Positions 13,543 through 59,249 are shown, counted from the first letter of the whole stretch. The stretch: DNA of 63,533 nucleotides, filler included, from Welwitschia mirabilis (GCA_051453625.1; 7 parts of one record of this genome joined end to end with filler, not necessarily neighbours in it), one strand, 5' to 3'. The notes: generated from the letters alone by a model not told the origin. Translations and numbers: made by a program.

Positions 13543-15325
13543 AGAAAATTGTAGAACCCACAAGAAAAAAGGGAGATTATTATCATATAAATAATGCGTG
13601 CAAAAGCATATCTCTTCAAAATGACATAATATTGTAAATGTAAAATGATCACAAGAGAATAAACATCTAAGTATTGAATATAAATAAAAGCATATCAAAT
13701 TCTTGCCTATAATCATATCTTTTAATGCTTTTAGCTTCTAAGTCTGACTTTTCAAGAAGTGTGTTACCTGAAACGTTTTAAAGTAAATGCATTATAATAT
13801 GAAGTATGCATTTCAATTAAAAAAATAAAGCAACCAGATACAAGTTTTTCAAAATTCTTGGAATAATATAAGTTTAAAAAATGACCTCTCTAGAATAGAG
13901 AATGANNNNNNNNNNNNNNNNNNNNNNNNNNNNNNNNNNNNNNNNNNTGTCCATTAATCCAGGTCTTCATCCATAAAATTAGACTTGAAGTCTCATCCAA
14001 AGGACCAACAAAGTTCTATTAGTGAACATCTAGTCTATAATTTTAAGAGGCTAAAACATTCCAAGGTCCTTGGCTAATATTTGATGTGTAGGACTATAGG
14101 ATATGTGTTGATAGAAATATGTCATTAACAAGGTGCAAAGATCATATTTCACAATATGTGGATATCACATATAGTCCTATTGTTAATTCTTCCAGATGTC
14201 AAATAAATCATAACAAAAGAGAGTATGATGCTTTATCAATTTTATATGCACCACCTATTGCATGTCACTAAGAATTTGATCATGTAGAGTGCATATTTTT
14301 TGTAACCCAATATGTGAACATCAACAGAATTTAGAAGTAATTACTTACTGGGAAACATAATAAAATACTAAGAACTTGATTTGATGTAATATGACATGAT
14401 AAAAAAGCAATCCAACTCGAATTTATAATAAGAAAATTGTAGAACCCACAATAAGAAGGGAAGATTATTTTCATATAAATAATGCGTGCAAAAGCATATC
14501 TCTTCAGAATGACATAATATTATAAATGTAAAATGATTAAAAGAGGATAAATATTTGAGTATTACATATAAATAAAATCATATCAAATTCTTGCCTATAA
14601 TCATATCTTTTAATGCTTTCAACACAACCTCCAAGTCTGACTTTTCAAGTAGTGTATTACCTAAAATGTTGCAGAGCAAATGCATTATAATATAAGGTAT
14701 GAATTTCAATTAAAAAAAAAAAGTGACCAGATACAATTTTTTCAAAATTATTGGAATAATATAAGTTTAAAAAATGACCTCTCTAAAATAGAGAATGAGC
14801 AAGGGAATTGAGATAGAAATTGTGACATGGAATGCATTTGTATCCATTAATCCAAGTCTTTACCCATAAAATTAGACTTAAAGTCTCATCCAAAGGACCA
14901 AAAAAGTTCTATCAGTGGACATTTTATCTATGATTTTAAGAGGCTAAAACATTCCAAGGTCCTCAGTTAATATCTGATGTGTAGGACTGCAGGATATGTG
15001 TTGATTGAAATATGACATTAACAAGGGGCAAAGCTCATATTATACAATATGTGGATATCATATATAGTCCTATTGTTANNNNNNNNNNNNNNNNNNNNNN
15101 NNNNAAAAAAGAGATCATGATGCTTTGTCAATTTTCTATGCGTCACCTATTGCATGTCACTGATAATTTGATCATGTAGAGTGCATTCTTTTTGTAACCT
15201 AATATGTGAACAACAACAAAAATTTGGGAGTAATTACTTGCTGGAAAACATAATAAAACACTAAGAACTTGATTTGATGTAATATGACATGATACAAAAG
15301 CTATCCAACTTGAATTTATAATAAG
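13543..15325. repeat. Tandem duplication, two units of ~890 bp
   Basis: Unit 1 starts 13543 and unit 2 starts 14431 (agaaaattgtagaacccaca...ataaataatgcgtgcaaaagcatatctcttc). The units are colinear with many substitutions, and their junction is in called sequence rather than at a gap. Confidence 0.9.
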
Positions 15326-16749
15326 ATACACGACAGAGGTTGTGAAACCAAGAAANNNNNNNNNNNNNNNNNNNNNNNNNNNNNNNNNNNNNNNNNNNNN
15401 NNNNNNNNNNNNNNNNNNNNNNNNNNNNNNNNNNNNNNNNNNNNNNNNNNNNNNNATAAAACACTAAGAACTTTATTTGATGTAATATGACGTGATACAA
15501 AAGCTATCTAACTTGAATTTATAATAAGATACACGACAGAGGTAGTGAAACCAAGAAATATAGCTAACTGCAAATAGAAGTAACATAGATGGAAATACCT
15601 TGTCATAAGTTTACTGTCAGCTAGATTCCACTGAAGAATACAAAATTTATACCTCTTAATTAAAAGAAATAAGTAATCTTGAGTCTCATTNNNNNNNNNN
15701 NNNNNNNNNNNNNNNNNNNNNNNNNNNNNNNNNNNNNNNNNNNNNNNNNNNNNNNNNNNNNNNNNNNNNNNNNNNNNNNNNNNNNNNNNNTCATTCTAAA
15801 ATAATGCAACTTTAGAAACAAAGCTTTTAAACAACTAAAACAAATGTCTAATTTAATAATAAACATTCTGAACATACATAAAGCCTAAAACGTTTAAGAA
15901 TTACATTAGGACATCTAACATTGGCTGAAAACAACAAAAGTGTAATTAGGTAAAGAAAAACATAAGATATAAAAGTATGCATACTCTCATTCTTCCAACA
16001 TGCTGATGGAATTTTATAAATGTGCTTCTTTAAGGAATACCTACTTTTTAGATTATAAATGTGCTTATTTAAGGAATATATGCTTTTTCATCTTTAAAAT
16101 AATAGATTATGAATCTCTAAAATAATAGTGCATCTAATAAGTTATCACTTTCTCAAAAACACAGGAAGACTAGCCCAGAAGCCTTCTTACTATCCATTTT
16201 CCTAAAACTCTTAATGAATGAGAAAACCCTAACTCAAAACTACAAAATGTAGCATTTGGCTTGGACAAATATGGAATCTAGAATTGTAGAGTAGACAACA
16301 ACATTGAAAGATAAAAGAAAAATCTAAATTGGAGTGGAATTATTGCAAAGAGAGGAGATCCATGGTTTCGAGCTCAAAAGAACCTCTACCATGACACATT
16401 AAGTTCTATTGCCCATAACGCCGATAACCTCTTCTTTTATGCATTTAAAAATTCCTCTTGATAATAATACTAGGGCCCTCGAAGGAGAAAGCAAATGTGA
16501 GGAAAAGGAATGACTCATGAGCTTTCAACCCCTTCCTCATAAGGTGATTCTTGATGCAGAAGAGCTAATTATCATGAGAGCCGTAACACAGAAGAGTTAA
16601 TTCTCAAATGTAGAAGAGTTGTGATCTAGGAGAGCTAGAGAGTTAATTCTTAAATGTAGAAGAGATGTAACGTAGAAGAGCCGTTTGTTTGTTTAATAAA
16701 GATAGATGATTCTAAAATGAGAGAAAAGGTTCAAGGTAAAAAAGACATA

Positions 16750-16989
16750 TTATTTAAGCGGTTTATTAAAATAAATGCCTTAAAAATATGGACTTTTTAA
16801 GGTATTTATTTATATAAATTCCTTAACAGAATATCTGAATGCTCTTAAGGCGATTGTCTAAATAAATAACTTAAATAGCTTTTCATTCAGCTCATTTTAA
16901 GGAGTTTATCAAAATAAAATCATTAAAAGGCTATATATTTAAGGTGTCTATTTTAACAAATTCCTTAAAAGATAATATTTCTTGTAGTA
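16750..16989. mobile_element. CACTA (En/Spm) terminus with subterminal repeats
   Basis: Ends tttcttgtagta (reverse complement TACTACAAGAAA, one transition from CACTACAAGAAA). About five imperfect palindromic subterminal repeats of the form ttaagg..ttt...aaat.ccttaa precede it. The other end was not found. Confidence 0.7.
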
Positions 16990-18279
16990 AGTGGGTTAGA
17001 GCTAATAATCTCAAAAGTTTTCTAACACAGTTAGCTCTCAGANNNNNNNNNNNNNNNNNNNNNNNNNNNNNNNNNNNNNNNNNNNNNNNNNNNNNNNNNN
17101 NNNNNNNNNNNNNNNNNNNNNNNNNNNNNNNNNNNNNNNNNNNNNNNNNNNNNNNNNNNNNNNNNNNNNNNNNNNNNNNNNNNNNNNNNNNNNNNNNNNN
17201 NNNNNNNNNNNNNNNNNNNNNNNNNNNNNNNNNNNNNNNNNNNNNNNNNNNNNNNNNNNTGAGCATTAGTCAATTATATGACAAAGGTCACAAAGTAATC
17301 TTTGAAAAACCGAAATGCAAAGTTGTTGATGAGAAAACTAATATTGCTATCTTTACTGTAAAAAGAGTAGATAGTATTTACAGAATAGATATCCATTTGA
17401 TCAATTAGTTAATTCATACAAATTATGACATAATAAAAGGAAATATTAGCCTAAATCTTACTAAAACTAAATGTTTTTTGGAGAATTCTAATGTAACTCC
17501 CTGTGATTGTAATTTAATTATCAATCATGAAAATGAACTGGGGGTTTTGTTACCATTATTTAGCTGATTACAAGTTAATCAACTAGATCTATCATTCAGT
17601 TAACCAGATGTGGTTGGTCAACCGACCTAAAAGCCTAGTTTCCCGAACTCCTTCTAGTACTATAGACTTGCATCTCAACGGGTCAACTAAAATCTCGAGT
17701 AGTTGACTAGACANNNNNNNNNNNNNNNNNNNNNNNNNNNNNNNNNNNNNNNNNNNNNNNNNNNNNNNNNNNNNNNNNNNNNNNNNNNNNNNNNNNNNNN
17801 NNNNNNNNNNNNNGAACTGGGGGTTCAGTTACTATTCTTTAGATGATTGCAAGTCAATTGATCAGATCTATCATTCGGTTGACCAGATGTGGTCAGTCAA
17901 CCGACCTAAAAGCCCAGTTTCCCGAACTCCTTCTAATACTATAGACTTGCATCTGAACAGGTCGACTAGAATCTCGAGTAGTTGACTAGACATGATGGAT
18001 CACAGTGCAGACATACCATTGGTGGACTTGATTTCTTTCTTCATTNNNNNNNNNNNNNNNNNNNNNNNNNNNNNNNNNNNNNNNNNNNNNNNNNNNNNNN
18101 NNNNNNNNNNNNNNNNNNNNNNNNNNNNNNNNNNNNNNNNNNNNNCTAAAATCTCGAGTAGTTGACTAGACATGATGGATCACAGTGCAGACATACTATT
18201 GATGGCCTTGATTTCTTTCTTCATTTTGTTTTATTTTTCATAGTTTCTAAAAGAAAGAAGACCCTAAATTGATTTTCTT

Positions 18280-19450
18280 ATGTTCCATCCTTCTTCATCT
18301 CTCAGATCTAGAGCTCTTTCTTCAAGATCAAGAGCTTTACTCTTAGATCTAGTGCTTTTCTCTAAGTTTTCTTGCTTACAAAGTTCTTNNNNNNNNNNNN
18401 NNNNNNNNNNNNNNNNNNNNNNNNNNNNNNNNNNNNNNNNNNNNNNNNNNNNNNNNNNNNNNNNNNNNNNNNNNNNNNNNNNNNNNNNNNNNNNNNNNNN
18501 NNNNNNNNNNNNNNNNNNNNNNNNNNNNNNNNNNNNNNNNNNNNNNNNNNNNNNNNNNNNNNNNNNNNNNNNNNNNNNNNNNNNNNNNNNNNNNNNNNNN
18601 NNNNNNNNNNNNNNNNNNNNNNNNNNNNNNNNNNNNNNNNNNNNNNNNNNNNNNNNNNNNNNNNNNNNNNNNNNNNNNNNNNNNNNNNNNNNNNNNNNNN
18701 NNNNNNNNNNNNNNNNNNNNNNNNNNNNNNNNNNNNNNNNNNNNNNNNNNNNNNNNNNNNNNNNNNNNNNNNNNNNNNNNNNNNNNNNNNNNNNNNNNNN
18801 NNNNNNNGCCTGCTGTTACCAAAGAGATTTGTGGTAAGGTGAATTCTTGAAAGCACACCCTTTCTACTTCATTATTGACACCAGAATATCATTTTATTCA
18901 CTTGATTTTTCCTTATAACTTCTTACTTTTAGCTAGACATCGTAATGAGGCCTCCTGCTATAGAGCCTATATGATGTATTTGGTAGGGACTGAGCATTCT
19001 ATTGATGCTTCTACCATAATACTGAACAATATGATCTCACAGTTGGAGTATCATAGGACTAAGGCGTTACCCTATTCTATGATTATCANNNNNNNNNNNN
19101 NNNNNNNNNNNNNNNNNNNNNNNNNNNNNNNNNNNNNNNNNNNNNNNNNNNNNNNNNNNNNNNNNNNNNNNNNNNNNNNNNNNNNNNNNNNNNNNNNNNN
19201 NNNNNAATCCTTGAAGTCTCCCTCTTCAAAGAAAGCTTCTCCTAATGAGACCCTTTACTATCTAAGATGGATTGATTCCCGTACCAGATACATAACAGAA
19301 GCATTCATAGCAGCTAGTTATGATATTGCTAATACCTCAGTAGAGATCACTAGCTCAGCTCACACAAGAGACGATGAAGAAGATACAAAGAAAGACTTTG
19401 AAGAAGAAGAAGAAGAAGAGAGTCTGACTAAAAATTTTAGATTATGTTTT
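18280..19450 (+). pseudogene. Sirevirus env-like/extra 3' ORF (gapped)
   Basis: LTPEYHFIHLIFPYNFL...SIDASTIILNNM...ALPYSMII, then YLRWIDSRTRYITEAFIA. Homologous to 30700-31950, and located between pol and the PPT. Confidence 0.7.
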
Positions 19451-20810
19451 GCTTTGNNNNNNNNNNNNNNNNNNNNNNNNNNNNNNNNNNNNNNNNNNNN
19501 NNNNNNNNNNNNNNNNNNNNNNNNNNNNNNNNNNNNNNNNNNNNNNNNNNNNNNNNNNNNNNNNNNNNNNNNNNNNNNNNNNNNNNNNNNNNNNNNNNNN
19601 NNNNNNNNNNNNNNNNNNNNNNNNNNNNNNNNNNNNNNNNNNNNNNNNNNNNNNNNNNNNNNNNNNNNNNNNNNNNNNNNNNNNNNNNNNNNNNNNNNNN
19701 NNNNNNNNNNNNNNNNNNNNNNNNNNNNNNNNNNNNNNNNNNNNNNNNNNNNNNNNNNNNNNNNNNNNNNNNNNNNNNNNNNNNNNNNNNNNNNNNNNNN
19801 NNNNNNNNNNNNNNNNNNNNNNNNNNNNNNNNNNNNNNNNNNNNNNNNNNNNNNNNNNNNNNNNNNNNNNNNNNNNNNNNNNNNNNNNNNNNNNNNNNNN
19901 NNNNNNNNNNNNNNNNNNNNNNNNNNNNNNNNNNNNNNNNNNNNNNNNNNNNNNNNNNNNNNNNNNNNNNNNNNNNNNNNNNNNNNNNNNNNNNNNNNNN
20001 NNNNNNNNNNNNNNNNNNNNNNNNNNNNNNNNNNNNNNNNNNNNNNNNNNNNNNNNNNNNNNNNNNNNNNNNNNNNNNNNNNNNNNNNNNNNNNNNNNNN
20101 NNNNNNNNNNNNNNNNNNNNNNNNNNNNNNNNNNNNNNNNNNNNNNNNNNNNNNNNNNNNNNNNNNNNNNNNNNNNNNNNNNNNNNNNNNNNNNNNNNNN
20201 NNNNNNNNNNNNNNNNNNNNNNNNNNNNNNNNNNNNNNNNNNNNNNNNNNNNNNNNNNNNTACTTTGTAATATTTACTTATGTCTAATGAAATGCACTTA
20301 TATATTTTACACAAGATCATGATTTAATTGGTATCTCAAATCTATTTGTTCTTTTCCAAATCATATATGCTCAACATGTTTTTCTTTTGGTATTATGTGT
20401 GCTTAACTTGCAAAGTTTAAAATCTTCTAACATTGGAAACAAATTCTCATATATGCCATCTGACTAAAATGTTAAATGAGTGCCATGATCACATTATGAT
20501 TATCATAAAGTTATGCCTTTTTAAACTTTCAAATATGCATATTAAATTGTTCTATTTAAAGCACAAAATTTGACTGTTCAAAATGTCTTAACTTGCTTCA
20601 AAAGGAGTATTATTTTGCAATAGGCATTTTGTAAGGGGAAGCTTTTCTAAAGTTCTAATTTTTTATAAATAAGTTTTGTTTATCATCAATGTCAAAGGGG
20701 TAGATTATTAGATTATGTTTTATCAATTGATGTTAAACTAATGTTTTCTATATAGTAAATTTTATATATCTTGTGCAGAAGATATTAATTACTTATAGTC
20801 AAAAGATGAA

Positions 20811-20910
20811 NNNNNNNNNNNNNNNNNNNNNNNNNNNNNNNNNNNNNNNNNNNNTTAATTAATTAANNNNNNNNNNNNNNNNNNNNNNNNNNNNNNNNNN
20901 NNNNNNNNNN
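20811..20910. other. Artificial assembly spacer N44-TTAATTAATTAA-N44 (also 29721-29820, 43299-43398, 52331-52430, 59150-59249, 61531-61630)
   Basis: An identical 100-bp structure occurs six times. TTAATTAATTAA is a six-frame stop linker. Confidence 0.97.
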
Positions 20911-21149
20911 GGTATGAATCTATTGGATCTGAAGGATCAAGCATTGTAATCTTGTGACTTTCACTATTGTATCTTATCATCTATACTTCTGATTAAAGAA
21001 GATCTACCATCTATATCATCTCTACACTTAAGATCAGATCTTGTACTTCATTCATGTTACATCTACAAGAGAAGAGCTCCATTAAATGTACTAAATCAAG
21101 AATAAGTGATATCTTTGCTCTGTTGGCATCATTACATCACTACTTTGCT

Positions 21150-21660
21150 TTGTAAAAGATTGAGACTAAGCCTTGAAAATTCCATTCAAAGGTTGAGAGT
21201 AAGCCTTGAAAAGTCCATTAAAAGGTTGAGACTAAGCCCTAAAAAGTCCATTCAAAGGTTGAAACTAAGCCTTGAAAAATCCATTCAAAGGTTGAGACTA
21301 AGCATGAAAAAGTCCATTTGTAAAGGTTACAGNNNNNNNNNNNNNNNNNNNNNNNNNNNNNNNNNNNNNNNNNNNNNNNNNNNNNNNNNNNNNNNNNNNN
21401 NNNNNNNNNNNNNNNNNNNNNNNNNNNNNNNNGATATCTTTGCTTTGTTAGCATCATTACATCACTACTTTGCTTTGTAAAAGATTGAGACTAAGCCTTG
21501 AAAATTCCATTCAAAGGTTGAGACTAAGCCTTGAAAAGTCCATTAAAAGGTTGAGACTAAGCCCTAAAAAGTCCATTCAAATGTTGAAACTAAGCCTTGA
21601 AAAGTCCATTCAAAGGTTGAGACTAAGCATGAAAAAGTCCATTTGTAAAGGTTACAGGTA
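21150..21660 (+). repeat. 33-bp tandem repeat inside the LTR (aaaggttgagactaagccttgaaaagtccattc)
   Basis: About five consecutive units lie on each side of a 100-N gap, and the two sides duplicate each other. The repeat produces the spurious RLRLSLEKSIQ ORFs. Confidence 0.9.
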
Positions 21661-22089
21661 GAATACTCAGTGGAGTAATGAAGATCTGAGACCTAGCTTG
21701 GGGATAAGCTAATCATCGAGAGTGGAGTAGGGGGTTTCCAAAATTACTATAAATTTGGCATGCATTCATTTGGTATTTTTGTACCTTCAGTCATTATTTT
21801 TTTACTTCTATTATTTTCTTATTTCATGCACATTTTAGATTAGTTAATTACTATATGAAAGTTTTATTTAAGATTGGATTCATTTAAAATATTGTGTTGC
21901 ATCTTGGTTCAGCCCCCCCCCTTTAGGGTTCTTAATTCTATCACAATAATATTTTAATTGTTAAATCACTAAATGAGACTGAAAGATAGCTAGTTTGATT
22001 TCCTTTTCTAATTAAATTTCTTTATATAGTATAGATAATAAACTTAAGAACTCAATTTGTTGCAGAGACTTATAATTAGTCTATTCTTT

Positions 22090-22475
22090 TAGAAATGCTT
22101 AAGGAATTTTTGGTACCCATGTCTTGAATCCATTGATATTAAATACACATGCATTCTTTGAGAACATAAATAGAAAATAATTTTATAGAATGATCATGCC
22201 TATGCCTGTTTGAGAATGCTTATCATTAATAGCTACAAAATCAGATTGAATCACTTGATTTTCAATCTTAATTATTACTTTTAATTCTACATGAGAAATA
22301 GGTGCTTTACCATTCATTATAGAGATAGAATACAGAATAGGTAACTTAATCCAATGATCTTGTAATATATGTAGTATAGCAAAATTCTAGGTTGCTCCTG
22401 TGTCAATCAATGTAATTTGTTTTTTTCATAAACCATTTTTCCTCTGTATTTTAGTTAAAATGTAAATTAAAGAAA
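22090..22475 (-). pseudogene. Caulimovirid aspartic protease remnant
   Basis: LIYILTKIQRKNGL*KKQITLIDTGAT*NFAILHILQDHWIKLP, with the DTG codons at 22396-22404. Confidence 0.8.
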
Positions 22476-22899
22476 TAATCTTAAATGTTCTAATAATATT
22501 TTGTTTTTATAGTTATTACTATAGATGATATTTCATTTTATGGATAAGATGACCTTTAATGATATACCTACTTTCGAAATGATGCTATATCTATTAATTT
22601 TTCTACACTAGTTTGTTGTAAATCACCTTAAAATAATTTTATAAATTATTTATCTATGTCATCGATCCATCTTAGATCTATTCTATCATCATCATAAATA
22701 GGTGTTTTTTCATCATTTTCTTTTGAACATTCACCTTATTCACAAAAAGCATAGTGTAGATACATTCTAATTCTTCCTTGTCTTGAAATTGTTCATCAAT
22801 AATATCTGACCATGATTTTTAAACAATATATAGTTATCCTTCTAAATTTTTACATATCTTGTTATTAACCTTAGGTATACTTGATTTAACTTTTTCTTT

Positions 22900-23450
22900 T
22901 GCATGTAAACCTTGTGAATATCTGTGGTCAAAGTAAGTGATACTATAAAGTAGTAGTTTGCATGAGATTTATTTTCTTTGTGCATTAATTCTAATATTTT
23001 TCTTTTACATATTTTGGAAGAGAAGCTAAAAATGTGGTAATATAAGTAGTATTATGGAATAAGCCAAGACGATAAGTGGCTTTATGATAATATTTTGCAT
23101 ACTTTTCAAATTTAGATAAATCCTTTAGTTTTCATCATTGTAACTGAGTAACCTTAAATTCTCCTCTAAGTGGACCCATTTCTAGAGTGAATTCTTTTAA
23201 TAAGTAAGCTATTAAGACTTATCTACCTGAATCTAAAATTTACTATTTATACGCATCTAGAGAATTTATCCACCAATATCAAGCGATTCCTGAAATTCTA
23301 GCTAATGCCTATTTAATAATATTTTTTTCTAGCTCATCTCGTATTTCATATGCTATATGTATATATTCTATTCACAAATTTATGATAAATAAAACTTCAT
23401 AAAGCCTAACCTTATTAATATTTGATTTTGGAATATTAGTCTTTCATCTA
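22900..23450 (-). pseudogene. Caulimovirid coat protein core remnant
   Basis: ISGIA*YWWINSLDAYK**ILDSG...LLKEF...KLKDLSKFEKYAKYYHKATYRLG...TFLASLP resembles the G..K.WW / EF / L..F..Y / F...LP pattern of caulimovirid capsids. It lies between MP and protease. No zinc knuckle was seen. Confidence 0.65.
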
Positions 23451-24429
23451 TTCTGAAATGCCATTATATTATAGTATGGTAACTCATATTTATCTACTTT
23501 AGTCATTAACTATTTTACTAGGGATTTCTTTGATGGATCATATGAATATTGGAATTGTGAAAACCATTTATTATTATGTTCTAGAGGTAACTGATTTGAA
23601 TAATTTGATTTAAATATTGCCATAGCTTGATCATATGCTAATAATTCTTTTGCTTTAGCCTTTGTTTCTACCTATTCTTATTTTATATTTATTTTCTTTT
23701 GTCTCTCTTTTTCTTCACTAGCACACTGCTGTTCAAAAACTCTAAGAATTTTGAGATTATAGTTAATCTTCTTAATTTATTATTCAAAAAAATATATTTT
23801 TGGTAATGGATGATCTATATAAGATATTAGGTAATTTAACTGTTTAACTAAATATTCTTGCATTTTGTTTTTAACTCCATTGAATGTTCTAAAATATGAG
23901 TAATATCTACTTTTGTCTTAGTTAATGAGATATTTGAATTATTTAGGAGGATATTTTAATTTTTTAGTATAAAATTTTTAATTTAAAATATCTAAAATTC
24001 ATCACTTGATTCTAGTTAATACTTTATTTCTGTTCCTTTGCCTTCATCATATTTACTTTTGCTAAATTTTTTCTATTTATTTCTCATAGAATTCTTCTTC
24101 ATCACTTTTATATTCATCCCAATCTACTAAACTTGTACTTGCATTACTTTTGTTTTGGATTTTAGGTTCTTCTTCAATCTTGATATTAACTTGAATATTC
24201 TGATTTACTGATATTACATGAGGAACTTCTAGTTCAGTGTATAAATTTATAGTAGCATATATTCTAGTTTAAATACTTGGATATTTGGAAAAGATCTTTG
24301 GGCTAAACTATTTCTTGTCTTTAGGCTTAAATATATATTTTTAATTATCTAAATATTATTGGATTGCTAAAAGATTATTCACATAACCATTAGTATTAAC
24401 TCTTTTATCAAGTTCTAATAAATTTCTTG

Positions 24430-25073
24430 ATCGAATGGGAAACTTAACAGCATATGCTAACTTGGAATTCATAAACATATCTCAAAGTAAATTGAAAGTG
24501 CATCTCGAACCTATAGAGAAATATACAGATACTTCAAGTATATCTACTCCATGTATCTCAATGCATACCATTAGAGACTACATAAGTAGTTTATCTTATA
24601 AACTTAATTGAAAGTTCAGTTAAATACAACATATAAAATCTTTATTTAAATGTCCTCTAAATTGAAAAATGAGAGCATTTTCCCATGTTGTATGTCTAAC
24701 CTCTAATAAACTTACTAAATAGTTTTCACAAATGTTGTAGTTAAACTTTGGGTAAATAACCTTTTTATTTTCATTATTCTATATATACTTATTAAATAAG
24801 TGTAAAAATACTAGTTTAATACCCTGACCTTCTACATCCAAATGAACTTTAGGTTCTAATATGTATACATAGTTATTTTCTATATTTAGGTATATCATAT
24901 AGATTGTCTTTTTTAATATCTAAGAATCTAACTTCATTCATTTTTAAATCATGCTGGTATTCATTTTTCATAACTAATTTATGAATAGGCATAAAGTGAT
25001 ATTCATTCAATAAACTTCGAGTAGATAATGTACCAGTAAAAGCATAAGAAGTTAAATCTTTTTGAAGAGCCAT
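24430..25073 (-). pseudogene. Viral 30K-superfamily movement protein remnant
   Basis: ATG at 25073 (MALQKDL...). After a frameshift: LVSLLEVRHTTWENALIFQFRGHLNKDFICCI*LNFQLSL*DKLLM*SLMVCIEIHGVDILEVSVYFSIGSRCTF. This matches the caulimovirid MP core pattern L.D.RH...ALI...PNF..SL.D..L..SL...I..HG.D. Confidence 0.8.
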
Positions 25074-26150
25074 ACCTTTTGTCTATAATCAAACATTATA
25101 GACTAGATGCGAAGGCTAATAATTTACAATTACTTGCTACTAATCATAGCTTTATAATGATCCATATTTGTTTAAGCTTATACTTAGAATCTCTCTTTCC
25201 CAAGGATCTATGTGGTAATTTATCAAGAGAAACACAAATATTCTATCTTACAATGAAACTCAAAATAAAAGAAAATTAGAAGTTCTAAAAGAGGATAATC
25301 TTTAGTTGATGATGTAAGGAAACAGAAATGCTCTAAGGATCTAATTGATTCATCCAACTCTCTATTGCAATGTGAATTTCTACAATGTTTCACATCTTGA
25401 TCTAAATCCTATTAATTACAAATAAAATGCAGAAACACAACACACTAGTATAGTTGGGAGTAATCCAAATGTTGTAATTCCATTGAAGGCTAAAGTATGG
25501 AAAATAAAGAGTTAATTTCAAGATGGAAATATATAACTCTAATTTATTGAAATAAATTGCAACACATGGAATTGACATAGTAATGTAAAACTAATCTATG
25601 AAAAGAAATAACGACACACCTAATCTAATCAAGCTCAACCTTGATAAAGGCTGTCCTTATAATCTATATAATAGAAGAAACCTGTCACTGAATCTTAAAC
25701 AACATAAACTATGAGGGAGAGATTCCTGCATATATTGAACAAATAGGATAATTTATATTAAAAAGCATAAAANNNNNNNNNNNNNNNNNNNNNNNNNNNN
25801 NNNNNNNNNNNNNNNNNNNNNNNNNNNNNNNNNNNNNNNNNNNNNNNNNNNNNNNNNNNNNNNNNNNNNNNNCACAATCTATATAATAGAAGAAACCTAT
25901 CACTGAATCTTAAACAACATAAACTATAAGGGAGAGATTCCCTTCATAGATTGAACAAAAAGGATAATTCATATTAAAAAGCATAAAAGACATCTGTATC
26001 ACAAAGTAATCATTCCTCAATAGAGGATACGCCACCCAACACCAAGGTAACGTCTCTCTAGATTACAAGATGGTTCTCTGGTCTTAAGATCTCCTGTCAT
26101 GAGAATGTCAGGTACTGTCGAAGATGATTAGGAATCGAGAGTAAGACCTT

Positions 26151-26159
26151 TATTTATAG
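26151..26159 (-). promoter_or_regulatory. Putative viral promoter TATA box (CTATAAATA)
   Basis: About 1.1 kb upstream of the MP ATG. An equivalent CTATAAAAG in similar context lies at 40320-40328 (minus) in locus B. Confidence 0.45.
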
Positions 26160-26849
26160 ACAAAAAAGAAAGGGAAACTGACAGAGAAGTAGAAGAGAAA
26201 CCTTAGCTAACATGCAAAGTAAAGTCGCAAAGAAGTGACGACAACTCAAGAAAACATTCGGTAAAAATATAAGNNNNNNNNNNNNNNNNNNNNNNNNNNN
26301 NNNNNNNNNNNNNNNNNNNNNNNNNNNNNNNNNNNNNNNNNNNNNNNNNNNNNNNNNNNNNNNNNNNNNNNNNNNNNNNNNNNNNNNNNNNNNNNNNNNN
26401 NNNNNNNNNNNNNNNNNNNNNNNNNNNNNNNNNNNNNNNNNNNNNNNNNNNNNNNNNNNNNNNNNNNNNNNNNNNNNNNNNNNNNNNNNNNNNNNNNNNN
26501 NNNNNNNNNNNNNNNNNNNNNNNNNNNNNNNNNNNNNNNNNNNNNNNNNNNNNNNNNNNNNNNNNNNNNNNNNNNNNNNNNNNNNNNNNNNNNNNNNNNN
26601 NNNNNNNNNNNNNNNNNNNNNNNNNNNNNNNNNNNNNNNNNNNNNNNNNNNNNNNNNNNNNNNNNNNNNNNNNNNNNNNNNNNNNNNNNNNNNNNNNNNN
26701 NNNNNNNNNNNNNNNNNNNNNNNNNNNNNNNNNNNNNNNNNNNNNNNNNNNNNNNNNNNNNNNNNNNNNNNNNNNNNNNNNNNNNNNNNNNNNNNNNNNN
26801 NNNNNNNNNNNNNNNNNNNNNNNNNNNNNNNNNNNNNNNNNNNNNNNNN

Positions 26850-29720
26850 AAAAATACCTGAAAAGAATCAGAAAAAATCGGTCGTCCAACCTGTCATCTA
26901 GATAATAATGGGGACAACAGGCTCCTTAAAAGATTTTCAAAATTAGAACCTATGACAAAAATCAAATATTTTATTAATTAAATTAAATAGCTCCTCACTG
27001 TGATAAATAGTTAGATAAAAGATAATCATGTAAAAATTAAGAAATCTTGTATCAGTAACTAGATTAAAAGGAGGATCTACAATAATGATCTCTTATAATC
27101 AAAAAAATTGAATCAGAAATATTGAAATTATGCGTGTCCTGCCCTCACTTAAAATATGCAATGCATCCCGAATTGCCTAAACAAATAAAAAGGGAAAGTA
27201 CTAAAGAAAAAGAAAAATGTGAAAATGAATGGAAAATAGGAGACATGAAAATAGAAGAAAGGCAAAGGAAAAATAGACACAAGGAACAAGAAGAAGAATG
27301 TTTACCTATTCTAAGTACTAATGTTATCAAACTCCAAAGGTAAACATCATAACATCACCTGAGTGCATATACATGATAAAATGTATTAACTCGATAAAGT
27401 TCATTTGAAAAGGCAGTGGTTATGACGATATCCAAGGTTTCAAGTGTGTAGAAAAATGAAGGTCAAAATCAAAAGTCACTTAGAAATGGACTCATCTATT
27501 TCTACCTACAAACACACCAAAATCTCCAAAAGTAAAATGATCAAGTGGGAATACTAAAAGTTGTATTTCATTTACCATGATGAGGGGAGTGCAACCACTA
27601 TCAGAGGAGTAAGGACTTGCGAAGCATGACTGACTAACCCCCCAGTGGAGTTTCCACAGTTACCATATTACACTGCCAAAGGCNNNNNNNNNNNNNNNNN
27701 NNNNNNNNNNNNNNNNNNNNNNNNNNNNNNNNNNNNNNNNNNNNNNNNNNNNNNNNNNNNNNNNNNNNNNNNNNNNNNNNNNNNNNNNNNNNNNNNNNNN
27801 NNNNNNNNNNNNNNNNNNNNNNNNNNNNNNNNNNNNNNNNNNNNNNNNNNNNNNNNNNNNNNNNNNNNNNNNNNNNNNNNNNNNNNNNNNNNNNNNNNNN
27901 NNNNNNNNNNNNNNNNNNNNNNNNNNNNNNNNNNNNNNNNNNNNNNNNNNNNNNNNNNNNNNNNNNNNNNNNNNNNNNNNNNNNNNNNNNNNNNNNNNNN
28001 NNNNNNNNNNNNNNNNNNNNNNNNNNNNNNNNNNNNNNNNNNNNNNNNNNNNNNNNNNNNNNNNNNNNNNNNNNNNNNNNNNNNNNNNNNNNNNNNNNNN
28101 NNNNNNNNNNNNNNNNNNNNNNNNNNNNNNNNNNNNNNNNNNNNNNNNNNNNNNNNNNNNNNNNNNNNNNNNNNNNNNNNNNNNNNNNNNNNNNNNNNNN
28201 NNNNNNNNNNNNNNNNNNNNNNNNNNNNNNNNNNNNNNNNNNNNNNNNNNNNNNNNNNNNNNNNNNNNNNNNNNNNNNNNNNNNNNNNNNNNNNNNNNNN
28301 NNNNNNNNNNNNNNNNNNNNNNNNNNNNNNNNNNNNNNNNNNNNNNNNNNNNNNNNNNNNNNNNNNNNNNNNNNNNNNNNNNNNNNNNNNNNNNNNNNNN
28401 NNNNNNNNNNNNNNNNNNNNNNNNNNNNNNNNNNNNNNNNNNNNNNNNNNNNNNNNNNNNNNNNNNNNNNNNNNNNNNNNNNNNNNNNNNNNNNNNNNAT
28501 GTTGACAAATATGTAAGGGCATAATATTAACACTGGTTCCTATATCTATCAAGGCTTTTTGAATTCTTCGGTTCCCCTCTAAAGTGACACTAACAGTTGT
28601 TGCACTTGGATCTTTAAATTTTGGACACTTCTTAGAAACTAAGTTATTAATAGATTGAGCTAAGAAGACTTTACTAAGGATAGTTTATTTTTGTTTTCTC
28701 CTTATTAGGTCTTTCCATAGCTTAGAGTATTTGGAGTTCTCTTGNNNNNNNNNNNNNNNNNNNNNNNNNNNNNNNNNNNNNNNNNNNNNNNNNNNNNNNN
28801 NNNNNNNNNNNNNNNNNNNNNNNTAAGACTATTAAGACATGAGGTAGTAGGTTTCTTTTGTTAAAATTTTTTCTTTTTGTTGATAAGTGAAGAAGGGAAG
28901 GAATGATTTTCTAGGATTTCTATGTCTTCTTCTTCATCATTTTTGTCATTGTGGGAAGTTGAGGCCTCATGATTAGGAGTTGTAATAGTTCCACTCCTTG
29001 TTACTACCTTACAATCTTTTCATATTTCATTAGGATTCGATAAGGGTTGAGTGGTAAGGATCCCTTGTGGTCTTTTGTTGGTAAGCATGGTTTATTGTAA
29101 GATGTTTACTAGATTTTTTATGTTTGCATTTATCTTCTCTTGAGTTTTTCTCAACTCCTAAATAGAATTTCTAAGGGGATCATTATGGTTTGGGGAGTTG
29201 GAAGGGCTTGCCAATTTATTTGGATAGTTGGATTAAAAGTTTTGATGTTCAAATCTNNNNNNNNNNNNNNNNNNNNNNNNNNNNNNNNNNNNNNNNNNNN
29301 NNNNNNNNNNNNNNNNNNNNNNNNNNNNNNNNNNNNNNNNNNNNNNNNNNNNNNNNCATACTTCATTAGGGTTCAGTAAGGGTTGAGTGGTAAGGATCCC
29401 TTGTGGTATTTGGTTAGTAAGCATGGTTTGTTGTAAGATGTTTACTAGATTTTTTATGTTTGCATTTGTCTTCTCTTAAGTTTTTCTCAACTCCTAAATA
29501 GAATTTCTAAGGGGATCACTATAGTTTTGGGAGTTGGAAGGGCTTGCCAATTTATTTGGATAATTGGATTGAAAGTTTTGATGTTCAAATCTATTTCGAA
29601 ATGTTTGAAAGTTAGGATAATGTGTTTGAAAATTGTGATTGGGGACTTATATTTGGTTATAATTTTGAGTGTAGTTGAAAGGTCCTTGGTTCAAAGCATG
29701 AACTTTTTTATAAATTCTCT
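26850..29720 (-). mobile_element. gag: Athila-like Gypsy gag-protease fragment and downstream internal region
   Basis: ALIDIGTSVNIMPLHIC (protease, ~28500-28560), CPKFKDPSATTVSV and QGILTTQPLLNPNE resemble the Athila motifs ALCDLGASINLMP, PPKLKDPG and GKLPSQPE.NP. Confidence 0.7.
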
Positions 29721-29820
29721 NNNNNNNNNNNNNNNNNNNNNNNNNNNNNNNNNNNNNNNNNNNNTTAATTAATTAANNNNNNNNNNNNNNNNNNNNNNNN
29801 NNNNNNNNNNNNNNNNNNNN

Positions 29821-30699: not shown

Positions 30700-31950
30700 A
30701 GGATTCAAAAGACTGTGCATCCTCAATTTAAGATGTATCAGCCACTGAAGTACCACTCGCAATGAGAGCTTCTTTGATGTGACATGTACGAGAGTCAATA
30801 CGGCATAAAAGGTAAAGGATATCTAGATTTCGAGAGGCCTTGATCTTAGGCCTAGACAGAGCTATAGGTTCTTTAAAAATATGCATCCTAAAGAGAGTGG
30901 TACATTCAATAAGCATCATGGAATTCTAAATCTCCTGCCAAGCAAGATGAGGAATGTTAGAGTGACGACAGATCTGAGTGATGAGAAAAGGATATGATAG
31001 GGCATACCTCTTATGAGGTTGAAGCTAGTTGGCCATGCACTTGAGAACGATACTAGGAGCATTAATGTCTCATATCTGATCCAACGAGTAAAGAAGAAAG
31101 ATCCAATAGTTTGAGAGCTCATCTCTGTGCTCAACAACTAGCAGGAAGTTATATGACATAATCAAGTGCAAGAGATGAAACTTAGAAAGAAGCTGGGAAG
31201 CTTTGAGAGTTTTCTTCTAGGTAACCAGAGTGCCACACACATGTTGAGTGGCAATATCCTTTTCTTCAAAGGACTCAAACATGGACCAATATTCTCCCCA
31301 GTTTTCTTACGGTAGCCTAGTGAGGGAAGTTATGAGATCAGCAGTGATGTGAATTTTATGGCAAAAAATAAAAATAATAAATGTGGAATGGGCAACATCA
31401 AATCTAGCATTTGAGTAGAATAACCTAGTGATAAGAGGATAACATGCCTGACACATGGAGAAAATAACTCCAGTTTGCTTCTCCCAGTAGAGTTTGGACC
31501 TTCCTTAGGCTGAGAANNNNNNNNNNNNNNNNNNNNNNNNNNNNNNNNNNNNNNNNNNNNNNNNNNNNNNNNNNNNNNNNNNNNNNNNNNNNNNNNNNNN
31601 NNNNNNNNNNNNNNNNTCTAGCATTTGAGTAGAATAACCTAGTGATAAGAGGATAACATGCCTGACACATGAAGAAAATAACTCTAGTTTACTTCTTCTA
31701 GTAGAGTTTGGACCTTCCTCAGCTTGAGAAATTGAATAGGTTTACAGGTCCTTTCCAAAGAAATGGGGCTAGACTCAAAATGCTTCTCAAAGTGAGTGAG
31801 TTACTCACTGTTCATTCTGAAAAAGACATAACTTATGGGTTTGACAACAACCTTCTTTCTTCTCTTCTTGGAACCTTGTCCTGACTGCTGAGAAGCCATT
31901 TGAAAGTTATATATGAGAAAAAAACATGAAAAAAAGTGAAGAGAGGCCCC
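30700..31950 (-). pseudogene. Sirevirus env-like/extra 3' ORF (frameshifted)
   Basis: Fragments IMSYNFLL, RGMPYHILFS and DILYLLCRIDSRTCHIKEALIASGTSVADTS match the 18280-19450 ORF. Lies between RNase H and the PPTs. Confidence 0.7.
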
Positions 31951-39089: not shown

Positions 39090-41087
39090 GAATTTGGTGG
39101 GGATGGTTAGGGAATGTGATGGTGCTACTGGTGTAACAGATTTTAGGCTATAGGGTCTCAGAACTTTTTAATAGAAGCCTAAAATGCTTGTACCTTAAAA
39201 ATTTGCACCCTATAAAAATAACCTATACATTATTAATTTTCTTAAATATTTTAAAATAATTTATAGAATAGGACTAAGAAATTTATGAAAAATTTATAAA
39301 AATCATAAAACACACATAATACAAATCATTAGATTTTGATTTGGTTTTAAATTCATGATCTTGGGTTCGGTTACACCTATAGGAAAGTTATTAGACTTGC
39401 AACACAAAAATATTAGATTAGATAACTAAGCTTAATAACTTAGATCAGTTTAGGTTTTACTAAAAATGACTTAGTACCTATCATTGAAAGAAAAAGAAAA
39501 TGTAAAAATGAAAGGAAAATGGGCTAGTTATAGTATCACTGAAAACGGATTAGTATCCACCACTAGAAGAATAAAAGTTAACTAAAAAATTATAAGCAGA
39601 AAATCATGCATTCTTAAAAAATTACTGTGCCAATATCTTTAATAATGGAGTTAAAATCTAATCATAGCTTTATATGGATTTTTTAAAGTTTATACTTAGA
39701 ATCATTCTTTCATAGGGATATAAAGGGTACTTTATAAAGAGAAACATAATTATTCTATTTTATAATGAAACTTAGAAAAAAAGAAAATTAAAATTTTGAT
39801 GAGAATGATTTTTAGTTGACAATGTAAGGGAATGAAAATTCTCCAAGGATCTAATAAATTCACCTTATTCTCCACCTTTGCTCTAATGATTCTTATATCT
39901 TAAACTTGACAATTAAGTAATATCTACCTAAAAATTATCAATTACCAATGAATTATGTAATAATGATGAAAGGAAGAAACCTACTTAAGAAATATTCTCA
40001 TCTAAATATTGCTAATGCCAAATCAATTATCTAATAATAATAAAAGGATTAAAATTAAATCTAAAACTAGTCCTACATAAATATTACTAATACAAAATGA
40101 CTTTGTGCATTAATAATGAAAGGGCTTAAACTAAATCTTTTACTAAAATTAAACTAGATATACATTACCTCAAATGAAGGAGGTAAAAAAAAACCTCCTC
40201 AACTAGCCTTGGATCATTCCACCCTTAAGAAAAGTTATCGGAGCATCATAACATCCTAGCCTCTAAGTCTTTCCCATGTTAAGCTAATCAAAAGATGTTT
40301 ACAAGGGGTACTCAAGGCTCTTTTATAGATGAGGAAAGGATTAAAGTCTAAGTCATGATTGCATAGGTGGTAGTTACATAAGGAGGGTTACTTAAGGATG
40401 GATACATAAGGAGGAAGTTATAATTTTTCATATGTATCCAATTCCTTTTCTTAATATGCAAACATGATGATAATGTGTCCTTTGACTATTGATTATGCTA
40501 CCAAAGGATGCCATATCATGTGTCTTTCATGTGATTATCCTTATTATTATCACATGTTATTACAACATGTCAATTTGTACTTTTCCTTGTGTCATTAAGT
40601 CTAAATATTTTTTTAGGATTAATTATGACTTAGCTCATAAGTACAATGTAATTAATGTCAAAAAGATATAGGAACGTGAGTTTTAGAACAATCTTATTTA
40701 GAAAGCTAATGGAATGAGAAGACTTGACCATGCCATCGGTGTTTGGTGATAAACATTCATCAGTTTGGGCATAGTTCTTTCAAAGGCTATAATATACCTT
40801 ATCATGTTAAGGGAAGTCCGTAATTTCATGAAAAGTAATAAAAAGGTCAAAAAAATTAATATGTGATAAAACCATAAATTTAGTATTTCTTCCTATGCTA
40901 AATTGATCAATTATACTTACTTAGAATGTCAATTTTGACATGCAACTAGTTATCAATGAGCAATTGGATTTGTAGTCTTTAAGTAAAACTTGGACTCTAT
41001 TACCAAGAAGGAGGGTTTATAATCAATTCTTGATTAATACACTCTTAACAGATGAATATAAGTCTAACTGATAAATGAAATGCAATT

Positions 41088-42422
41088 TTCGCCTTTAGAA
41101 ATAGTACTATTTCCTAATGATCATTACTGGCATTAGTGACTAGGACAAATCTACTTTCACTATTTGAATAAATAGGTACGAATGATGGTAAGTTTGAACA
41201 AATTTTCTTTAATAATTATACTACCTTTTTTGCTTCTGAATTCTACTAAAATGGTTGTCCTTTCATGCATCCATGGATAGCTTTTGTCTTAGAGCTAACA
41301 ACTAGAATAACATCTCTTATATAATTAATGAATCCAAGAAATCTTTGACATTACTTTACATCTAATAGCTGATCTAGAAAAGTTGAATTTTTTGATATAA
41401 TATGATCTTAAACTTATATTTGTCCATTTATGATATTAACATGAAGGAAATCAATATGATTTTTTAACATTTTAAATTTCTTTTTATCAGTGGAGAAACC
41501 AATACCATGCTTTAATGATAATTTTGCAAACTTATTGAATTGGACCATCAGCCTTGAAATATACATTTGTAGCATTTATTATTCATTCTCATGTAGAAAT
41601 TTGAAGAAATAAAGATCATATGGTAATTAATTGTATTCCTCTCAATAAAGTTACAATTAATCTAGCATAACCTATAAAAGATAAAGGTTTTCTTATCTAG
41701 AAGGTTGTAGGAAAAAAGTATTTTTAAAAAGTTTATTATAAGTCAAGATATCATCAATAAAAATTCATCCTGATGACATTTATAAGATAGCTTTTGAAAC
41801 TCTTAAGGAATCTTTTGAATGAATAGTTATGTCATTTGGCTTCAAGACTATACTTGCTTAATTCCAAGCTAGAATGAATACTATTTTTGCTAATTGTAGT
41901 GATTTTATTAAAAACTATATTGATGATTTTGCTATTTTCTATAATACATATGAAGAACATCCCCAACATTTAGATTAGTTTGTAAAATTAGCATTGAAGC
42001 ATGGTATTGGTTTTTCTAGTGATAAAATGAAATTTAAAATGTTATAAAATTATACTGACTTACTTGACGTTGATATCATTAATGGATAAATACAAGTTTA
42101 AAACCATATTATATCAAAAATTTCAACTTTCTTAGATTAATTATCAGATATAAAATCAACATTAAAGATTCCTTAGATGCATCAAATATGTAAGAGATTT
42201 TATTATAGCTATTAGTACTAAGAAAAAAGTATCCATGAATGCATGAAAAGACAATCATTTCAATGGACTTCAGAAGTAATAAAGGTAATACAATTATTAA
42301 AGAAAATTTATTCAAGTTACCATCATTAGTACCTATTTAGTCAATTAGTGAAAGTAGATTCATCCTAGCCATTGATGCTAGTAATGATTATTAGGAAGCA
42401 ATATTATTTCTACAAGAAAATA
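41088..42422. repeat. Inverted repeat of viral RT/RNase H (arms ~41088-41535 and ~41975-42422)
   Basis: aaaccaataccatgct pairs with agcatggtattggttt, and aatctactttcacta pairs with tagtgaaagtagatt. There is no gap inside the structure. Confidence 0.9.
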
Positions 42423-42573
42423 CTATAGGAAAAAAAAGATATTCTGATACTTATTAAGAGAATTCAAAAAGAATGAAAAGAATTAAAGAATCCTAGAAAA
42501 ATAAGTCCTAACATTAATTAATTATTTAGACAGGTTACATTCATTTCTAATGGATAATGAATTTATTGTACGA
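41545..42573 (+). pseudogene. Caulimovirid reverse transcriptase and RNase H (decayed)
   Basis: AFIIHSHVEI*RNKDHMVINCIPLN ... KIHPDDIYKIAF ... FE*IVMSFGFK...FQARMNTIF...NYIDDFAIF (YIDD at 41916-41927) ... KHGIGFSSDKM. RNase H motifs IDASND (~42371) and FLMDNEFIVR follow. The AF.V..H.E..RGK.RMVINY..LN pattern is characteristic of Caulimoviridae rather than Gypsy. Confidence 0.9.
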
Positions 42574-58913: not shown

Positions 58914-59249
58914 TCATTTTTCTTACATTCTAGAGTTTTAACTTCTTACACTCATCACTTTTAGTTATAGTAGTCCATTGCGTTCACCTGCATTTCCTTA
59001 TACAAAACTCTTTTATGCTACCTTCTCATGGAAAACATTTATTCTTCTAGTCGACAATGACATGTTTCACTTATTCATTCTTTTCCTTCAGTAATTAGAC
59101 ATGTAGTTTTTGATTTCCACCTTGCACTTAATTCCTTTTCAACTTGTCANNNNNNNNNNNNNNNNNNNNNNNNNNNNNNNNNNNNNNNNNNNNTTAATTA
59201 ATTAANNNNNNNNNNNNNNNNNNNNNNNNNNNNNNNNNNNNNNNNNNNN

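Follow-up and report, generated by a model that had tools for sequence, protein, structure and literature searches.

Features of the locus

The window (the whole stretch of DNA that was analysed, 63,533 nucleotides with filler) carries, from 25073 to 22105 of the minus strand, decayed coding sequence for a 30K movement protein (MP), a caulimovirid coat region and an A3-type aspartic protease, in viral order (Table 1). The polyprotein of Welwitschia mirabilis virus 2 (WMV2; P0004) recovers three collinear minus-strand blocks by tblastn, corresponding to MP (E=2e-41), coat (E=2e-9) and protease (E=4e-11), and the full set of collinear HSPs lies at 24998-24125, 23881-22997, 22893-22837 and 22497-22105. 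A preliminary description of this DNA had read an MP, a capsid-like block and a protease here, and the order and strand that it gave are borne out. It had also placed them in one decayed frame, which does not hold: by tblastn, the blocks are spread over frames -1, -2 and -3. Thus, at least two frameshifts have occurred.

Table 1. Features of the viral element, its flanks and related fragments in the window.
Feature	Position	Strand	Remarks
High-copy repeat next to the viral core (3' side)	21660..21935		Depth 10,000-28,000
A3-type aspartic protease	22105..22497	-	Frame -3; 3 in-frame stops; LIDTGAT at 22410-22390, DTG codons at 22404-22396
Short coat C-terminal motif	22837..22893	-	Frame -3; P0016 residues 225-243, E=0.001
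Coat (capsid) protein region	22997..23881	-	Frame -2; 14 in-frame stops
Acidic linker joining MP to coat	23882..24124	-	10 stops in 81 codons; between MP and coat HSPs
30K MP core and C-terminal extension	24125..24865	-	Frame -2; 9 in-frame stops; 12-residue deletion relative to WMV2
MP N-terminus, polyprotein start	24873..25073	-	ATG at 25073-25071; 66 open codons up to a stop, homology resumes in another frame
Upstream non-coding stretch	25074..25385	-	Intermediate copy number; depth 64-517 in bins 25110-25385 versus 1-18 in the core
High-copy dispersed repeat	25386..26273		100-N gap at 25773-25872 within duplicated flanks; not virus-specific
Inverted partial RT duplicate	41087..41530	-	WMV2 residues 1273-1417, tblastn E=3e-22; placed in the RT tree
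Second locus, decayed RT to start of RNase H	41494..42573	+	Other scaffold piece; WMV lineage; truncated by an N run

Residues 48-228 of the WMV2 polyprotein align with 24865-24359 at 45% identity (81/181), and residues 53-307 of WMV1 (P0019) with 24865-24125 at 36% identity. In frame -1, WMV1 residues 8-55 match 24998-24855, and this HSP is linked with that for the MP core (E=1.3e-45); P0019 stretches the MP homology over 24998-24125 in two frames. A caulimovirid MP profile built from the reference proteins scores E=9.8e-26 on the element. The 30K-type MP domain expected of Caulimoviridae is thus identified by the WMV2 match and the custom profile, with the direct PF01107 match falling below threshold (E=0.0094, 16 bits versus a cutoff of 23). 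The MP proposed earlier for 24430-25073 is confirmed by the same WMV2 alignment, PF01107 itself being weak. The linker at 23882-24124 is without significant homology.

The coat region matches WMV2 residues 396-709 (23881-23015, E=2e-9) and two proteins that bear PF22909, namely P0010 (residues 30-178 against 23443-22997, E=3.6e-16) and P0016 (residues 43-184 against 23440-23012, E=3.7e-8). No direct Pfam match was obtained for the coat piece, so that the conserved caulimovirus coat domain is recognized only transitively, via P0010 and P0016. The C-terminal coat motif, lying in frame -3, indicates the second frameshift. When the knuckle regions of WMV2, WMV1 and Nymphaea sequences were compared with 22400-23100 by permissive tblastn, only chance-level matches were found, and the CCHC zinc knuckle of the element has probably been lost by decay.

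Evidence for the protease comes from PF02160 (Peptidase_A3; E=2.3e-4, 21.2 bits versus a cutoff of 21.3), from tblastn with WMV2 residues 923-1020 (22497-22186) and P0016 (22461-22135), and from the motif LIDTGAT. Together these identify an A3-type enzyme with a DTG active site, whose DTG codons had been placed correctly in the preliminary description. The 22105 boundary is reached by P0021 only at E=0.081. A word-index search of longer proteins with the protease piece found nothing. Direct Pfam evidence on the shorter pieces of the element is weak throughout (MP under the cutoff, protease 0.1 bit short, coat without a match), and whole-frame scans of three read-through frames gave nothing at E<=10.

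Lacking downstream of the protease are reverse transcriptase (RT) and RNase H: no RVT or RNase H signal and no tblastn match was found on the minus strand of 17260-22100. Thus, the RT-RNase H1 region that characterizes Caulimoviridae is absent from the element's own scaffold.

The DTG protease and a gag-like region are common to caulimovirids and Ty3/gypsy elements, and a genuine Ty3/gypsy RT is present in the window at 48441-48716. Nevertheless, it is extremely improbable that the gag-protease part of a Ty3/gypsy LTR retrotransposon has been mistaken here for a virus. A 30K MP is present (E=2e-41), the protease fits Pfam A3 and not the retropepsin families, and none of the gypsy polyproteins among 134 reference queries matches the element at E<=1e-3. 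Neither long nor LTR-like direct repeats were found flanking the element, and its features are not those of the Metaviridae (gag-pol with integrase, LTRs, no MP). Collinearity of MP, coat and A3 protease supports the earlier reading of the locus as an old integrated caulimovirid, as does the fact that the 16 of the 134 queries that match include no Ty3/gypsy polyprotein. Two outcomes had been named beforehand as speaking against a virus, namely no 30K match for 24430-25073 and a best match to gypsy for capsid or protease; neither was observed. The window also contains a copia-type gag ORF (60319-61470) with 148 matches at E<=1e-10, of which the best 120 are only 26-45% identical and scattered among angiosperms, which is uninformative about the host lineage.

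Decay, copy number and flanking sequence

The coding part of the element contains 37 in-frame stops in 821 codons, and its GC content is 25.0% with a CpG observed/expected ratio of 0.20. The GC content of the whole window is 30.5%, which is compatible, and no more than compatible, with the 29.07% given for the Welwitschia genome in PMC8275611.

Summed contig depth in two DNA runs is 1-18 over the viral core and 10^4-10^5 over its flanks, with the limits of the low-copy core near 21.94-22.1 kb and 25.1-25.4 kb. DNA runs represented by 12 rows, from three studies and two organism labels (A and B), contain all or part of the stretch; five of the rows have at least half of its words, and the best-matching run may be the sample from which the window was assembled. 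No RNA runs containing the stretch were listed in the run index, and no RNA reads fell on 21798-25523 in runs X13 and X16, about a quarter of each having been read.

Plant sequencing data were the source of the circular WMV1 and WMV2 assemblies (bioRxiv 10.1101/2022.02.23.481439), which would be in keeping with contaminating or episomal virus DNA. We give almost no credence to this explanation, or to a domesticated host gene still in use, given the 37 in-frame stops and at least two frameshifts, the contiguity of the element with high-copy host repeats in the assembly, a depth far below that of the flanking repeats (two DNA runs) and the lack of RNA reads on the core (X13, X16). The viral fragment is a dead genomic fossil in a very AT-rich plant genome, and its polymerase is absent.

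Most of the 1.1-kb leader with a TATA box that had been claimed upstream of the MP is a high-copy genomic repeat. This follows from the depth of 29,000-192,000 in bins 25386-25772, against 1-18 in the viral core. The TATA-type sequence TATAAATA at 26158-26151 occurs 16 times in the window, the N gap is flanked by duplicated sequence (25661-25772 and 25876-25988), and a primer-binding site is missing; the claim of a leader is thus unsupported. For the tRNA-Met primer-binding site, no match was found in the leader at <=2 mismatches or to a transition-degenerate pattern, nor at <=3 mismatches in 25074-26273, a region that is partly N. The first 12 bases of the motif used are those of the 16-bp site quoted in PMC13308828. 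Elsewhere in the window it has 3 to 4 matches, which is chance level. The non-coding stretch at 25074-25385 is possibly a remnant of the viral leader. Part of it (25140-25352) matches 39658-39862 at 77%; this pair was considered as a shared viral leader and rejected, as nothing beyond adjacency ties it to viral coding sequence. On the other side of the core, TRF identified 33-bp tandem arrays at 21480-21643 and 21155-21318, and 21546-21895 matches 3919-4276 at 75%.

The element lies on a scaffold piece of 8.8 kb (20911-29720) that has five internal N runs and is bounded by N44-TTAATTAATTAA-N44 linkers. Its truncation may therefore be partly an effect of assembly. Carried further, this would mean that a full-length endogenous caulimovirid is present in the real genome and that its RT/RNase H half is absent only through a scaffold break in the adjoining high-copy repeat and gaps. 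The repeat does begin directly after the protease, and RT fragments of the WMV lineage occur on another piece of the window. However, the roughly 1.2 kb that can be read past the protease (22105 to 20911) consists of repeats and the tandem arrays, with no RT. The RT fragments lying at 41-42.6 kb have also been rearranged, into an inverted duplicate. In two DNA runs, contigs join within the core, which points to further rearranged copies, so that fragmentation seems typical of the family. We consider a full-length copy decidedly unlikely.

Relatives and placement

Searched exhaustively with HMMER, the read-through MP-to-coat frame matched 15 proteins at E<=1e-3, nine of them at <=1e-10 and two at <=1e-30. 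The best (E=2.4e-57) is P0004, annotated as 'polyprotein [Welwitschia mirabilis virus 2]', with MP, A3 protease, RVT_1 and RNase H domains. Named relatives among these matches are entries from Nymphaea thermarum, Taxus chinensis and Welwitschia. The 16 reference proteins that match the element at E<=1e-3 comprise WMV2, WMV1 and 14 of the HMMER matches; within the same set of 134 queries, Pinus nigra virus 1, Petunia vein clearing virus (PVCV), tungrovirus, badnaviruses and gypsy polyproteins have no match at this threshold.

An MP phylogeny had been proposed as a check on the preliminary description. In the resulting tree (37 rows), WMV1, WMV2 and the element form a group at 96/87, which joins Nymphaea copies and P0013 at 100/98. 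The element is sister to WMV1 plus WMV2 and nested in neither, with a best identity of 55% over 101 columns. The placement of this RT-less element rests on MP, whereas the published classification uses RT-RH1. Debat & Bejerman (bioRxiv 10.1101/2022.02.23.481439) have proposed the lineage of WMV1 and WMV2 as a genus, and in PMC13308828 (PLoS Pathog 2026) it corresponds to subclade B.1. The earlier suggestion of an undescribed, unplaceable lineage is thus unsupported.

WMV2 (DBA06665.1, genome BK061148) is the best match in every block of the element, whose MP, coat and A3 protease follow one another on a single strand as they do in WMV2 and WMV1. The polyprotein of WMV2 is reported as a single ORF of 2,111 aa, and its fused architecture is the MP-CP-AP(-RT-RH) arrangement listed in the preliminary description (bioRxiv 10.1101/2022.02.23.481439). 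Identity to WMV2 by tblastn is only 45% (MP), 24% (coat) and 36% (protease), values in which decay inflates the divergence. Unlike WMV2, the element has the 12-residue deletion in the MP core, the stops and the frameshifts, and is without knuckle, RT, RNase H and C-terminal domain. It sits between host repeats, whereas WMV2 is a circular 7.6-kb genome (bioRxiv 10.1101/2022.02.23.481439).

The polyprotein of PVCV (P0036) has no tblastn match on the element even at E<=10, except for a chance match in the upstream repeat. PVCV, a caulimovirid of Petuvirus that is known to integrate and has endogenous copies, has MP, coat, protease, RT and RNase H joined in one large polyprotein; it falls outside the 100/98 MP clade and in a different starred clade of the RT tree, so that the element does not group with Petuvirus. 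Pinus nigra virus 1, of the Gymnendovirus 2 group, is a gymnosperm caulimovirid with a fused polyprotein that is sister to the WMV group in the RT tree (98/96), but it has only a marginal protease match on the element (E=0.081) and lies outside the 100/98 MP clade. Membership in Badnavirus or Tungrovirus is likewise not indicated: the 13 badnavirus rows form their own MP group (100/99), the Agapanthus tungrovirus is elsewhere, and none matches the element at E<=1e-3. Unlabelled plant loci with MP, A3 and RT (e.g., Fragaria proteins) fall in other clades of both trees, in a reference set without a named florendovirus.

RT fragments of the same lineage are encoded on a different scaffold piece. 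WMV2 residues 1114-1380 match 41494-42302 (E=6e-34) and residues 1459-1506 match 42430-42573 (tblastn), and the RT of 41494-42573 joins WMV1 and WMV2 at 100/98. The duplicate at 41087-41530 shares 83% DNA identity with 41979-42412 as inverted arms (blastn).

The sister position of the element in the MP tree and its low best identity (55% over 101 columns in the tree alignment, 45% by tblastn) could indicate that it represents a caulimovirid lineage of genus rank that is undescribed and no closer than sister to WMV1 and WMV2, which themselves share only 28% polyprotein identity (bioRxiv 10.1101/2022.02.23.481439). We regard this as unlikely. The 96/87 and 100/98 MP clades put the element inside the described group, as the 100/98 grouping does for the RT fragments of the window, and endogenous copies of subclade B.1 are reported from many seed-plant families (PMC13308828). 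Heavy deamination decay also inflates divergence, so that distance is not a reliable criterion of rank. More tentatively, and with somewhat better prospects, although still against our expectation, the element and the two RT fragments at 41-42.6 kb may represent a third, unnamed virus of the Welwitschia-virus group, either as a species or as a branch of genus level, with old copies common to organism labels A and B.

We are confident in a more general assignment: what survives in the ~3-kb stretch is a truncated and non-functional endogenous caulimovirid (endogenous pararetrovirus) comprising the 5' half of a single-ORF polyprotein, with movement protein, coat and A3 aspartic protease, from the WMV1/2 lineage, subclade B.1 of Caulimoviridae.

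Origin and significance

Caulimovirids are not known to encode an integrase, and the viral DNA would therefore have been captured in the germline by illegitimate recombination. Once captured, the DNA may have become methylated and decayed through C-to-T deamination, together with the remainder of the GC-poor genome, and the element would have lost, or been separated from, its RT/RNase H half. It is presumably inert as a virus now and at most could feed small-RNA silencing, a putative role.

Endogenous caulimovirids are common in seed-plant genomes. The element, a further copy from an already described lineage, is an ordinary genomic fossil, and alone it matters little, both because such fossils are common and because its lineage is already in print. 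It does show the extent of erosion by deamination in a viral fossil whose protein homology can still be recovered at E=1e-57. Endogenous copies of subclade B.1 / OTU 1 are reported from gymnosperms, Nymphaeaceae, Amborellaceae and magnoliids (PMC13308828). That catalogue is RT-based, and the RT-less element would go uncounted there; RT-based catalogues are blind to such fragments, and copy numbers of the lineage are thus underestimated. If the host lies outside the families covered in PMC13308828, the host range of subclade B.1 would be extended. The subclade is poorly dated, and because the locus occurs in DNA runs under two organism labels, comparison of orthologous loci could give a minimum age of insertion. 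A third branch, if real, would provide a dated calibration point for subclade B.1.

Coding blocks and their decay

A Pfam scan of the whole read-through frames gave no match. Shorter minus-strand pieces gave two weak matches in the expected order: viral movement protein (PF01107; 24910-24352, E=0.0094, 16 bits vs a 23-bit cutoff) and caulimovirus peptidase A3 (PF02160; 22560-22060, E=2.3e-4, 21.2 bits vs a 21.3-bit cutoff). The doubt left by these scores was removed by an exhaustive HMMER search with the 689-residue frame running from movement protein (MP) to coat, with stops replaced by X, which retrieved 15 proteins at E<=1e-3 (nine at <=1e-10, two at <=1e-30). The top match (E=2.4e-57) is a 2,111-aa protein named 'polyprotein [Welwitschia mirabilis virus 2]' (WMV2), which carries MP, A3 protease, RVT_1 and RNase H domains. 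By tblastn, this polyprotein aligns with the window in three collinear minus-strand blocks (see table). The MP match with Welwitschia mirabilis virus 1 (WMV1) is longer (24998-24125), with the N-terminus in a different frame, and P0010, a Welwitschia transcript product with a caulimovirus coat domain, matches 23443-22997 (E=3.6e-16). LIDTGAT is encoded at 22390-22410; its DTG occupies 22396-22404, the coordinates given in the preliminary description. Thus the HMMER result, the alignments with both viruses, the P0010 coat match and the LIDTGAT site confirm the proposed MP, coat and protease blocks in minus-strand order.

Features identified in the window, with strand and supporting matches
Feature	Position	Strand	Remarks
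MP block	24865-24359	minus	WMV2 residues 48-228, 45% identity, E=2e-41 (tblastn)
Coat region block	23881-23015	minus	WMV2 residues 396-709, 24% identity, E=2e-9 (tblastn)
Protease block	22497-22186	minus	WMV2 residues 923-1020, 36% identity, E=4e-11 (tblastn)
33-bp tandem arrays	21155-21318, 21480-21643		five copies in each; a 100-N gap separates the two arrays
Retrotransposon-like ORF fragments	27668-29019	minus	upstream, on the element's scaffold piece; broken by N runs
PF20167 'putative plant transposon protein'	30949-31465	minus	E=1.4e-8, 35.3 bits, under the 45-bit cutoff
Reverse transcriptase (RT) to start of RNase H	41494-42573	plus	WMV2 residues 1114-1506; ends at an N run
Inverted partial RT duplicate	41530-41087	minus	
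Ty3/gypsy RT fragment	48441-48716	minus	best scores with gypsy polyproteins with chromodomain or integrase
Copia-type gag ORF, intact, 384 aa	60319-61470	minus	PF14223/PF13961-type relatives; GC 36.5%
N44-TTAATTAATTAA-N44 blocks	20811-20910, 29721-29820, 43299-43398, 52331-52430, 59150-59249, 61531-61630		

Contrary to what had been proposed, these blocks do not lie in one decayed frame. They occupy three (MP N-terminus, -1; MP core and coat, -2; coat C-terminal motif and protease, -3), so that at least two frameshifts are needed. Along five collinear blocks, 37 of 821 codons are in-frame stops (block by block, 1 in 67, 9 in 247, 10 in 81, 14 in 295 and 3 in 131), and the MP core lacks 12 residues that WMV2 has. 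The GC content of the element (25.0%) and its CpG observed/expected ratio (0.20) are lower than in the window as a whole (30.5% and 0.27). The stops, low GC and low CpG are the mark of long neutral decay, probably caused by methyl-cytosine deamination. A CCHC knuckle is not detectable between coat and protease, and no RT or RNase H was found downstream of the protease (17260-22100).

Placement of the element

The tblastn reference set comprised 134 proteins, made up of the HMMER matches and 119 polyproteins found via the WMV2 RT region. At E<=1e-3, 16 of these match the element: WMV2, WMV1 and 14 proteins from the HMMER search, among them Nymphaea thermarum, Taxus chinensis and Welwitschia entries. 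Pinus nigra virus 1, Petunia vein clearing virus (PVCV), Agapanthus tungrovirus, badnaviruses and gypsy polyproteins in this set gave no match at that threshold. Rows for an IQ-TREE analysis of the MP domain (37 rows, 146 columns) were selected from 102 proteins with an MP-profile match, short fragments being excluded. The window MP groups with WMV1 and WMV2 (96/87), and the trio joins five Nymphaea-type rows and one other protein (100/98); PVCV, Pinus nigra virus 1, the tungrovirus and 13 badnaviruses fall outside this clade. The Taxus chinensis protein (KAH9293036.1, 104 aa, hypothetical), too short for the tree, is an MP relative of this group, with 44% identity to the window over 71 residues.

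The WMV1 and WMV2 genomes are reported as circular, of 7,872 and 7,648 nt, with one ORF each, and together with Pinus nigra virus 1 were proposed as a new gymnosperm caulimovirid genus (bioRxiv 10.1101/2022.02.23.481439). Both are assigned to 'subclade B.1', for which endogenous copies are reported in gymnosperms (Araucariaceae, Gnetaceae, Pinaceae, Welwitschiaceae, Cycadaceae), Nymphaeaceae, Amborellaceae and magnoliids (PMC13308828). Taxaceae are not named among the subclade's hosts in the passages of PMC13308828 consulted here. Given the MP tree and this literature, the lineage is already described, though not as an ICTV genus, and the suggestion of an undescribed lineage is not supported. 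The grouping of the element with WMV1 and WMV2 is by MP, and its formal place in the subclade is a putative one, since the published classification is based on RT-RH1 and the element has no RT; its distance from the two viruses is inflated by decay.

A second locus, on a different scaffold piece, carries two RT fragments, with inverted arms (41096-41530 and 41979-42412) that share 83% DNA identity. A 40-row RT tree with an outgroup of six gypsy polyproteins pairs the two fragments (100/98) and unites the pair with WMV1 plus WMV2 (100/98); Pinus nigra virus 1 is the next to join (98/96). Counting the element, at least three decayed fragments of the WMV1/WMV2 lineage thus lie in the window.

Flanking repeats and genomic support

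Contigs of two DNA runs were placed on 21660-25772 and their depth summed per bin. Core bins (21936-25109) have a depth of about 1-18, compared with 10,000-28,000 in bins 21660-21935 and 29,000-192,000 in bins 25386-25772. These two flanks are different dispersed repeats, at about 10^4-10^5 depth. Further copies of both, 75-77% identical, are present in other parts of the window. From the depth and these further copies, a dispersed repeat of high copy number makes up most of what had been read as a viral leader of ~1.1 kb. The only part that could have survived from the viral non-coding region is about 25074-25385 (depth 64-517, bins 25110-25385). No tRNA-Met primer-binding site was found in 25074-26273 at <=3 mismatches. 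The proposed TATA box is not confirmed: TATAAATA is present at 26158-26151, but the window has 16 occurrences of it (and 134 of TATAAA).

The stretch or part of it was found in 12 sequencing run rows, from three studies with two organism labels, and five of these contain at least half of the sampled words. Because the assembly may derive from the best-matching DNA run, we count the support as at most two independent studies. The core is tiled by contigs with 0-4% differences in both DNA runs, X1 and X5. Contig joints inside it (e.g., 23993 to 22455, 23833 to 25283, 24989 to 25071) point to further copies in those genomes that are rearranged in other ways. With about a quarter of each of two raw-read RNA runs (X13, X16) checked, 13 and 6 reads were placed; all are 90-95% alike, overlap the stretch only in part and are confined to repeat bins, with none on 21798-25523.

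Scaffold setting and other elements

The window is AT-rich (GC 30.5% of non-N bases), consistent with the 29.07% published for Welwitschia, for which long-term deamination has been invoked (PMC8275611). It includes 45 N runs. The N44-TTAATTAATTAA-N44 blocks look like a joining linker between small scaffolds; the window would thus be a string of small scaffolds in which adjacent pieces need not be genome neighbours. The element sits in an 8.8-kb piece (20911-29720) with five internal N runs. Two 100-N gaps have near-identical flanks (21108-21332 vs 21433-21657, 98%; 25661-25772 vs 25876-25988, about 94%).

The upstream ORF fragments on this piece have no Pfam match; one ends ...ALIDIGTSVNIMP, which we take to resemble a retropepsin motif. 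The PF20167 domain is on the adjoining scaffold piece. The best matches of the RT fragment at 48 kb are Ty3/gypsy polyproteins, which marks it as what is left of an LTR retrotransposon, with no relation to the element; further matches lie nearby at 46.5-49.5 kb. The copia-type gag is the longest clean ORF in the window. Its relatives are 26-45% identical and scattered among angiosperms (best 120 of 148 matches at E<=1e-10). Together with the intact frame and the GC content, this suggests a younger transposable element in a host without close annotated relatives in the database searched.

Origin and status of the element

The element is low-copy and heavily mutated, and comprises only the 5' half of a viral polyprotein, lying between host repeats. 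Because Caulimoviridae encode no integrase, the viral DNA would, from what is established for the family, have entered the germline genome via illegitimate recombination. The element should be unable to express any viral protein or yield virus, and it is possibly a source of silencing small RNAs. It is an ordinary genomic fossil.
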